From NCBI GenBank assembly GCA_964016885.1, contig OZ024745.1, positions 111,848,001 through 111,912,000 on the forward strand: a DNA stretch of 64,000 nt. Reading direction: 5' to 3'. A model generated the notes under the pieces. That model was not told where the DNA came from. It did not search any database and worked only from the letters and a program-made list of their open reading frames with translations. The DNA comes from Eledone cirrhosa. Its lineage: Eukaryota. The translations under genes were made by a program, and so were the position numbers. Shown in pieces: positions 8,841 through 10,959 of the stretch (its first letter is position 1; each line of letters begins with the position of its first letter).

Positions 8841-9508
8841 TATATATATATATATAATGTGTGTATATATATATATATACACATTATATATATATATATA
8901 TACATATATATATACACATTATATATATATATATACACATTATATATATATACACATTATATATATATATATACATATATATATACACATTATATATATA
9001 TATATACACATTATATATATATACACATTATATATATATACACATATATATATATATATATACACACATATATATATATATATATACACATATATATACA
9101 TATTATATATATAATATGTATATATATGTGTATATATATATATATATATATATGTGTATATATATATAATGTGTATATATATATAATGTGTATATATATA
9201 TATATATATAATGTGTATATATATATGTATATATATAATGTGTATATATATATATATATATATATATATACACATATATACACACATATATATATATATA
9301 TACATATATATATATATATATACATATATATATATATATATATATATATATATATATATATATATATATATATATATATATACACATATATATACACATT
9401 ATATATATATATATATATACACATTATATATATATATATATATACACACACACATATATATATATATATATATATATATATATATATATATATAACAAAC
9501 CAGGATTT

Positions 9509-9568
9509 TTTCATTCTGAGGATTGAAAGCAAAACCTTTTGCTTTTAAGAAACCACTGGTAAATGGAA
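9509..9568 (+). ncRNA. type I hammerhead ribozyme in a ~105-bp island inside (TA)n
   Basis: tttcatt-CTGAGGA-ttgaaagcaaaa cc ttttgcttttaa-GAAA-cca c tgg-TA-aatggaa: all three stems pair; GUA cleavage triplet. Confidence 0.85.
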
Positions 9569-10959
9569 TAATTGCCTTATCTTGTTTATTACATAATAAT
9601 ATATATATATATATATATATATATATATATATATATATACATTATATATATATATATATATATATATATATATATATATATATATATATATACACATTAT
9701 ATATATATATATATACACATTATATATATATATATATATATATATATATATATATATACATTATATATATATATATATATATATACACATTATATATATA
9801 TATATATATATATATATATACACATATTATATATATACACATATTATATATATACACATATTATATATATATATATATATACACATATTATATATATACA
9901 CATATATATATATATATATATATATATATATATATATATATACACACATTATATATATATATATATATATATATATATATATATATATATATATATATAT
10001 ATACACACATTATATATATATATATATATATATATATATATATATATATATAAAGAGGGAGAGAGAAAAAGATATTGATTCTATAGATAAGGATATCTAT
10101 ATAAGATGTTAAAGCAGTTGTTTTACACCTTTTCCTTTCCTTCCCTTCATCAACAATTGTATTGTGAAGTTATGTAAAAAAATTTATGCCTATTTTCAAA
10201 CTACAGCTCATTGCATTCATACAGTGTTTGAAATTCAATCAATACCTAGCTGGATGGGTATGAATATTTGTAGAGAAAACAGTAGATTGAAGGTAATTTG
10301 TAAAGGATTTTATATCACATATTCTTGTGTGAATATTGTTGTTGCATGCTTAGATAATGGATAAATATTTTTTTGTCTCCCACGTTGGTATGATAAATGC
10401 AATTGGAAGCCTGACCTTTATAATATGTCATATGTGTGAATAGGAAATCAACCCTATTGACTTTATTTCCCCAAGAAAAACTAATGTCTTTTCCAGGCAG
10501 CTAGGTGTAGGTGAATTACGGTGATGTAGAATAAAGTGTTTTGCCCAGATACACAATTAAAGAGCTACTGTGGATTTGATCTTACAATCCATGAAAGAGT
10601 AGTCTAATAATTTTACCTTATCCACTCAGCCATTTCATTTTCTATAAACTGGAGTTTTCTGCAGCTTAACCATCTTAATACCAACACAGCTGAAACTGCT
10701 CCAGTTTTATGATACACAACTACTCATTTTAAATTGTTCAAACTCTAGTTCCATCTTTATATTTCCTATTTGCATTGCATTGGCTCTCCCAACACTTTCT
10801 TTCTTACATATCCCACAATGCTTCATATAAACTACACACACACAGATATATATGTATCCTTATACACTGATGCACACAGATATGCATTTTTGCTACTATT
10901 CACAATTTTCATTTGATGCAACAATGGTCCAGAAGTATTACCAACTTTGTTATATATAT

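Follow-up and report, generated by a model that had tools for sequence, protein, structure and literature searches.

A hammerhead ribozyme island in a TA microsatellite of Eledone cirrhosa belongs to a high-copy repeat family and is likely the truncated tip of a Penelope-like element

The 64,000-nucleotide stretch of Eledone cirrhosa DNA analysed here, hereafter the window (contig OZ024745.1 of assembly GCA_964016885.1, positions 111,848,001 to 111,912,000 of the forward strand), is AT-rich animal DNA dense in repeats of octopus-like appearance, with 94 tandem-repeat rows. A TRF array at 8840–10052 encloses an island of 105 nt at 9494–9598 (plus strand). According to the sequence and the tandem-repeat scan the island lies between a (TA)n/(TACA) microsatellite field at 8840–9493, the likely insertion target, and a (TA)n field at 9599–10052; the preliminary description of this DNA had placed an island of about 105 bp in a long TA field, and this stands. 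Comparison with family copies marks the whole island as one member, shortened at its 5' end, of a high-copy repeat family and likely as a Penelope-like 3' end. It carries a canonical hammerhead near its 3' end, followed on the same strand by a 3'-terminal segment (9569–9598) in which the common family end falls at about 9596, 35 nt past the predicted cut site.

Elsewhere in the window, DNA-transposon remnants alone scored above the curated Pfam cut-offs (150 of 170 ORFs screened, non-repetitive and of at least 62 amino acids). These were a piggyBac-like DDE_Tnp_1_7 with zf-Tnp_2, a DDE_1 and a Tc1-type HTH (34627–36264 on the minus strand, 3524–3970 and 39308–39535). Neither a Penelope protein, reverse transcriptase or GIY-YIG ORF nor a clear host gene was detected in this screen, which shorter exons would escape, and the family pattern gave 0 matches in the viral and 0 in the prokaryotic collections. 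The sole Rfam hit of the window was a tRNA-like match of 33 bits at 17067–17124, probably the head of a SINE. Window self-search revealed a plentiful repeat whose copies, 93–98% alike and often lying within TA fields, terminate in (TCA)n or (TGA)n (8672–8840, 12095–12266, 17223–17391, 57708–57845, 61140–61311 and others). An inverted repeat of 189 nt (43259–43447 and 44186–44374, 94% complementary) is built from a common repeat also found near 19790–20060. Minisatellites of 53 nt and 59 nt units occupy 13835–14447 and 49213–49650, the latter sitting in a low-complexity frame of 408 amino acids with no Pfam match.

At 9516–9561 on the plus strand the descriptor scan identified a type I hammerhead whose core is complete and to which all the following elements belong. 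Descriptor and family copies define the catalytic core C3-U4-G5-A6-N7-G8-A9 (CUGAgGA) at 9516–9522, in which only N7 (9520) varies among copies, and the core segment G12-A13-A14-A15.1 (GAAA) at 9549–9552. The GUA triplet at 9559–9561 puts the predicted cut 3' of 9561; this triplet occurs naturally and is active (PMC1636495, in excerpt). Both the A15.1-U16.1 pair and an NUH cleavage site are present, and there are three helices with stem I open-ended, a form which is not the minimum-energy fold. Stem I pairs 9509–9515 with 9562–9568 over 7 bp, including one U-G (descriptor and fold). Fold and variants together predict a distal extension in which 9502–9507 pairs with 9570–9572 and 9575–9577 round a variable 2-nt bulge (9573–9574); in the predicted fold the same 9502–9507 strand is also part of a competing hairpin, 9501–9518, which occupies the CUG of the core. 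A further 6-bp pairing of 9501–9506 with 9578–9583 was rejected because it hinges on base 9581, which is private to the window copy. Stem II (9523–9548) has 11 bp and a 4-nt loop at 9534–9537, its tip and loop being variable among copies. Pair 10.1-11.1, usually G-C, is U-A here and C.A in about 10% of the X12 reads. Helix III (9552–9560) is the palindrome acca-c-tggt, for which no variant is listed among the copies and which is predicted to be stable only as an intermolecular duplex.

The preliminary description had reported an intact hammerhead with a 7-bp stem I, a GUA site cut after 9561, a 12-bp stem II and helix III as Acca-c-tggU. Its core, which is invariant among copies apart from N7, its cleavage site and its stem I are confirmed; stem II loses one pair, since a twelfth would demand a 2-nt loop. 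For helix III the palindrome was found (8 of 9 positions), and the 4-bp form arises between two molecules, not within one. The invariant stretch 9558–9564 around the cut also resembles a 5' splice site in its sequence, and an intron beside the hammerhead is described for some Penelope elements in excerpts of PMC4209133.

Rfam returned no hammerhead match, either for the window at the gathering score or for two stretches at E≤10, so the hammerhead assignment depends on the descriptor together with variation within the family. The miRNA matches seen in the E≤10 search were discarded as TA-repeat noise. A relaxed descriptor run on the window found the same three hammerhead motifs and no second copy of the island's family; self-search for additional copies gave short chance matches only, and the family has no tandem unit in the window, where it is present as a single copy.

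The other two motifs belong to a second hammerhead family, which is unrelated to the island's and likewise unseen by Rfam at the gathering score. Its copies form an inverted pair (20224–20386 and 20400–20561), about 97% alike round a short spacer, with cores at 20330–20281 (minus) and 20456–20505 (plus) and an 8-nt AT palindrome as helix III. The pair as a whole (20224–20651) has TA at both ends, and its plus arm is longer by about 90 nt. A decayed third copy, TA-flanked, lies at 1459–1561 within 1456–1829 (minus); it is 73% alike over 108 nt, the 3' half of its core is broken and its upstream part is longer. The second family directly shows the insertion habits of Penelope-like elements, namely an inverted TA-flanked pair and a one-sided tail.

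The abundance of the island's family was determined in 4 of 14 listed runs, X6–X8 having been left out of the counts with fewer than 5 family words. Matches were found in 1,060 of 16,285,364 contigs (X1), 3 of 18,734,193 contigs (X2), 23 of 8,254,286 contigs (X5) and 2,100 of 12,467,656 reads of a RAD library (X12). An estimate of about 800–4,000 copies was set aside: it presumes a guessed genome size and unbiased coverage, and a RAD library does not provide the latter. A pile of X12 read ends at 9573 was likewise rejected as an RNA or element end: it coincides with AATT, which we take to be the restriction-enzyme site of the RAD library, and is most likely a restriction end.

The substitution table holds 22 rows at 20 positions. 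Variation at 3% or more affects 0 of 12 core positions, 0 of 7 in the inner helix III and, among the free positions, 7 of 12 (Fisher p=0.005; with the remaining 70 positions of 9500–9581 as the comparison, p=0.03), the position classes having been assigned after the variant table was seen and the copies sharing ancestry, so that sites are not independent. Of 1,453 X12 reads, 583 have T at N7. In the stems the most frequent changes convert a wobble into a Watson-Crick pair, at 9546 in 426 of 1,448 reads and at 9566 in 628 of 1,544. Pairing is preserved by 6 of 7 stem I variants (p=0.06) and by 2 of 5 in stem II; the listed stem changes are all one-sided and linkage is absent from the table, from which no two-sided change is readable. 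At 9581 the window copy differs from 189 of 197 X12 reads. Diverged subfamilies with another loop II and C at 10.1 were seen in X1 and X12 as loose ends before 9538–9540. Of what the preliminary description proposed to check, copy number proved high, and the variation among homologues respects the hammerhead core.

Upstream of 9499 shared sequence continues in 20 contigs and 384 reads. Since other copies run on upstream of this point, the window copy is 5'-truncated, and the earlier view of the island as little more than a ribozyme is accurate for the window copy, of which truncation is the likely explanation. Behind 9596, 33 X1 contigs pass into (TA)n as the window copy does, and behind 9597 14 contigs bear a shared extension. 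The opposite-strand joints listed number four, of which three lie at 9499; each has 2 to 5 read starts, and few loci are involved. Those at 9499 are consistent with inverted copies cut short at the 5' end, as Penelope-like elements typically leave. Insertion hallmarks of such elements are 5' truncation, inverted 5' copies, an optional tail of 30–40 nt and microsatellite targets (PMC8557442, in excerpt), and two alternative 3' ends constitute the Penelope "tail" signature in the excerpts of PMC8557442 and PMC11167929. All of these were found in the island's family: truncation, inverted 5' copies (at few loci), an optional 3' tail and insertion into (TA)n.

In the predicted folds helix III cannot exceed 3 bp within one molecule, where it closes a 3-nt loop and costs +0.4 kcal/mol; between two molecules it forms 4+4 bp worth -8.2 kcal/mol. 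The monomer hammerhead fold lies about 3.8 kcal/mol above the ensemble, with a predicted share of about 0.002, or 0.012 if trimmed to the core, and 0.002–0.009 for the common family variants; these nearest-neighbour energies leave out magnesium and tertiary contacts and may put monomer folding too low. Mean pair probabilities in the monomer are 0.07 for stem I, 0.93 for stem II and 0.04 for helix III. A double-hammerhead dimer reaches -40.6 against -35.4 kcal/mol for two monomers, that is 5.2 lower, and lies 1.4 kcal/mol above the best dimer fold. The ribozyme is accordingly predicted to be a poor cutter unless paired with a second copy. The preliminary description had expected any plus-strand transcript crossing it to be cut; given the small monomer share, the favoured dimer and the lack of an intact partner in the window, such cutting is unlikely. 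Metazoan Penelope hammerheads are described as inactive as monomers and of low activity as dimers (excerpts of PMC4209133 and of the review PMC6765202), and the PAc hammerhead requires the element's protein (PMC11167929, in excerpt).

The best explanation, which we regard as probable, is that the island is a member of a high-copy family lying in a TA microsatellite, likely the 3' tip left by 5' truncation of a Penelope-like element, with a ribozyme predicted to work only as a dimer. Given a Penelope origin, sequence likeness makes the Hydra clade the probable source. By analogy with known Penelope biology, the GIY-YIG endonuclease of the parent element would nick (TA)n DNA, and its reverse transcriptase would start on element RNA that is still uncleaved, priming about 35 nt downstream of the cut or further out, the latter giving the "tail" of some copies. 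Synthesis would soon halt, in the present case at about 105 nt, and joining to the TA field would follow. Internal priming followed by an early stop, as in PAc (excerpt of PMC11167929), would thus yield an insert with a whole hammerhead and little besides. In the tandem transcript of the parent element two copies may pair via the palindromic helix III and cleave, possibly with the help of the element's protein. The lone copy in the window would likely be a passenger with little or no cleavage.

A different origin, which we consider unlikely, would make the island a partial monomer of a non-autonomous retrozyme or mini-element, a few hundred bases long, that moves on its own via cleaved, circularised RNA and borrows a Penelope protein. 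The likely high copy number would suit it, as would the several variants that all retain the core and the 14 contigs passing the 3' end, which could be entering the next tandem unit. Dispersed monomers of animal retrozymes have moreover been described, with a proposed origin from Penelope ends (bioRxiv 10.64898/2026.07.22.740005, in excerpt). Tandem repeats of 150–400 nt are, however, not found for the family in the window, and the 3' continuation resembles a Hydra tail, not the upstream loose end. In canonical retrozyme hammerheads helix II has 4 bp with conserved loop contacts according to excerpts of PMC4209133, whereas loop II is here among the most variable parts.

Somewhat less probable again is a self-spreading mini-element of 100–200 nt with a hammerhead and Hydra-type ends, kept catalytic by selection and causing genome-wide RNA turnover via double hammerheads. 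If this were true, its abundance in TA microsatellites would be such that transcripts holding two copies, or two transcripts that meet, form double hammerheads and are cut, and the length of stems I and II could reflect a co-extended architecture missed by the Rfam models.

That the island is an active monomeric ribozyme which cuts crossing host transcripts and may be kept for regulation appears very doubtful. The intact core with its active triplet and the possible extension of stem I to about 13 bp speak for it, and monomer cleavage is described for some animal hammerheads whose helix III has 2 bp (PMC7229834, in excerpt). Against it stand the very small monomer share even after trimming, the wobbles at 9546 and 9566, where 29% and 41% of X12 reads pair Watson-Crick, and the private base at 9581. 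Nor was there a conserved loop II sequence for a tertiary contact or a host gene among the screened ORFs, and the location is unstable microsatellite DNA. A chance arrangement in AT-rich DNA, for which the silence of Rfam and a folding z-score of just -1.13 might be quoted, can be all but dismissed in view of the family-wide invariance of the core while N7 is free, of 60 block-wise dinucleotide shuffles of the window with 2 loose and 0 strict matches on both strands, and of metagenome matches to the core pattern, 32 of 32 of which lacked stems I and II together and are thus fortuitous.

No description of the island's family was met in the literature searched, and the family seems uncatalogued in these sources and invisible to Rfam. 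Excerpts of a squid genome paper give 235 Rfam hammerhead matches with no detail (PMC6962438). Dispersed hammerheads from truncated Penelope-like elements are already known in many animals, and a record of this family aids repeat and ribozyme annotation. Conservation of the core over many variant copies suggests that cleavage matters to the parent element in vivo, which bears on the finding that it was dispensable for insertion in vitro (PMC11167929, in excerpt). Natural variants at N7 and at 10.1-11.1 in a young, high-copy family would also suit the testing of dimer-dependent hammerheads.

Among known systems, the hammerheads in the pseudo-LTRs of metazoan Penelope elements (Cervera and De la Pena 2014, PMC4209133, in excerpt) are also of type I, with a long helix II, a palindromic helix III and a dimer-dependent design, and are mostly single dispersed motifs from truncated elements, as here; U-A or C.A replaces their G10.1-C11.1 in the island's family. 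The excerpts of the same source describe minimal hammerheads, to which the island does not belong since it has a helix III and a 7-bp stem I; it also has no extra base after A9. With the animal non-LTR retrozymes (excerpts of PMC7229834 and bioRxiv 10.64898/2026.07.22.740005) it shares a type I hammerhead in a non-coding repeat of low GC, differing in being non-tandem in the window and in having no evident conserved contact of loop 1 with loop 2. A model of mechanism may be seen in PAc, an Anolis element of the Poseidon type (Frangieh et al. 2024, PMC11167929, in excerpt), with its AT-rich target, internal priming, two 3' ends (tail), uncleaved RNA template and protein-assisted hammerhead. It is of another clade than Hydra, and its ORF begins inside the hammerhead; an ATG just past the cut in the island meets a stop after two codons.

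The closest likeness is to the Hydra clade (e.g. Hydra-1_Obim and Hydra-2_Ajap), which has the same (TA)n target and a type I hammerhead near the 3' end. Nearly all Hydra families combine (TA)n insertion with a 3'-terminal hammerhead (Craig et al. 2021, PMC8557442 supplement), and many of their hammerheads have a 4-bp palindrome round one base as helix III and a pair other than G-C at 10.1-11.1. The comparison was made by eye against that supplement (584,131 characters), with distances hand-counted on the printed sequence. That file includes six consensus sequences for Hydra but lacks DNA of Neptune, Poseidon and Nematis, which leaves room for other clades. The core of the island's family has 0 matches in the consensus files, where line breaks can hide some, and stems I and II differ from those of Hydra hammerheads, stem II having 11 bp against mostly 3–7 bp among those listed. 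None of the screened window ORFs showed the Penelope-type RT with C-terminal GIY-YIG endonuclease and CxCX5C linker that marks the clade. Helix III of Hydra-1_Obim reads acca-a-tggt against acca-c-tggt in the island, and its cut lies 36 nt from the end against 35 nt in the island's family. The upstream and tail motifs of the family are majority lines of loose ends, with agreement of 0.67 and 0.74, and not single sequences. The start of the X1 upstream consensus is identical over 12 letters to Hydra-1_Obim (chance rate 0.07 per window), at 50 nt before the core in that element and 47 nt in the family. An 11-mer closing the tail consensus has two occurrences in the supplement, each within a Hydra element; one of them ends 64 nt past the cut, against 66 in the island's family.
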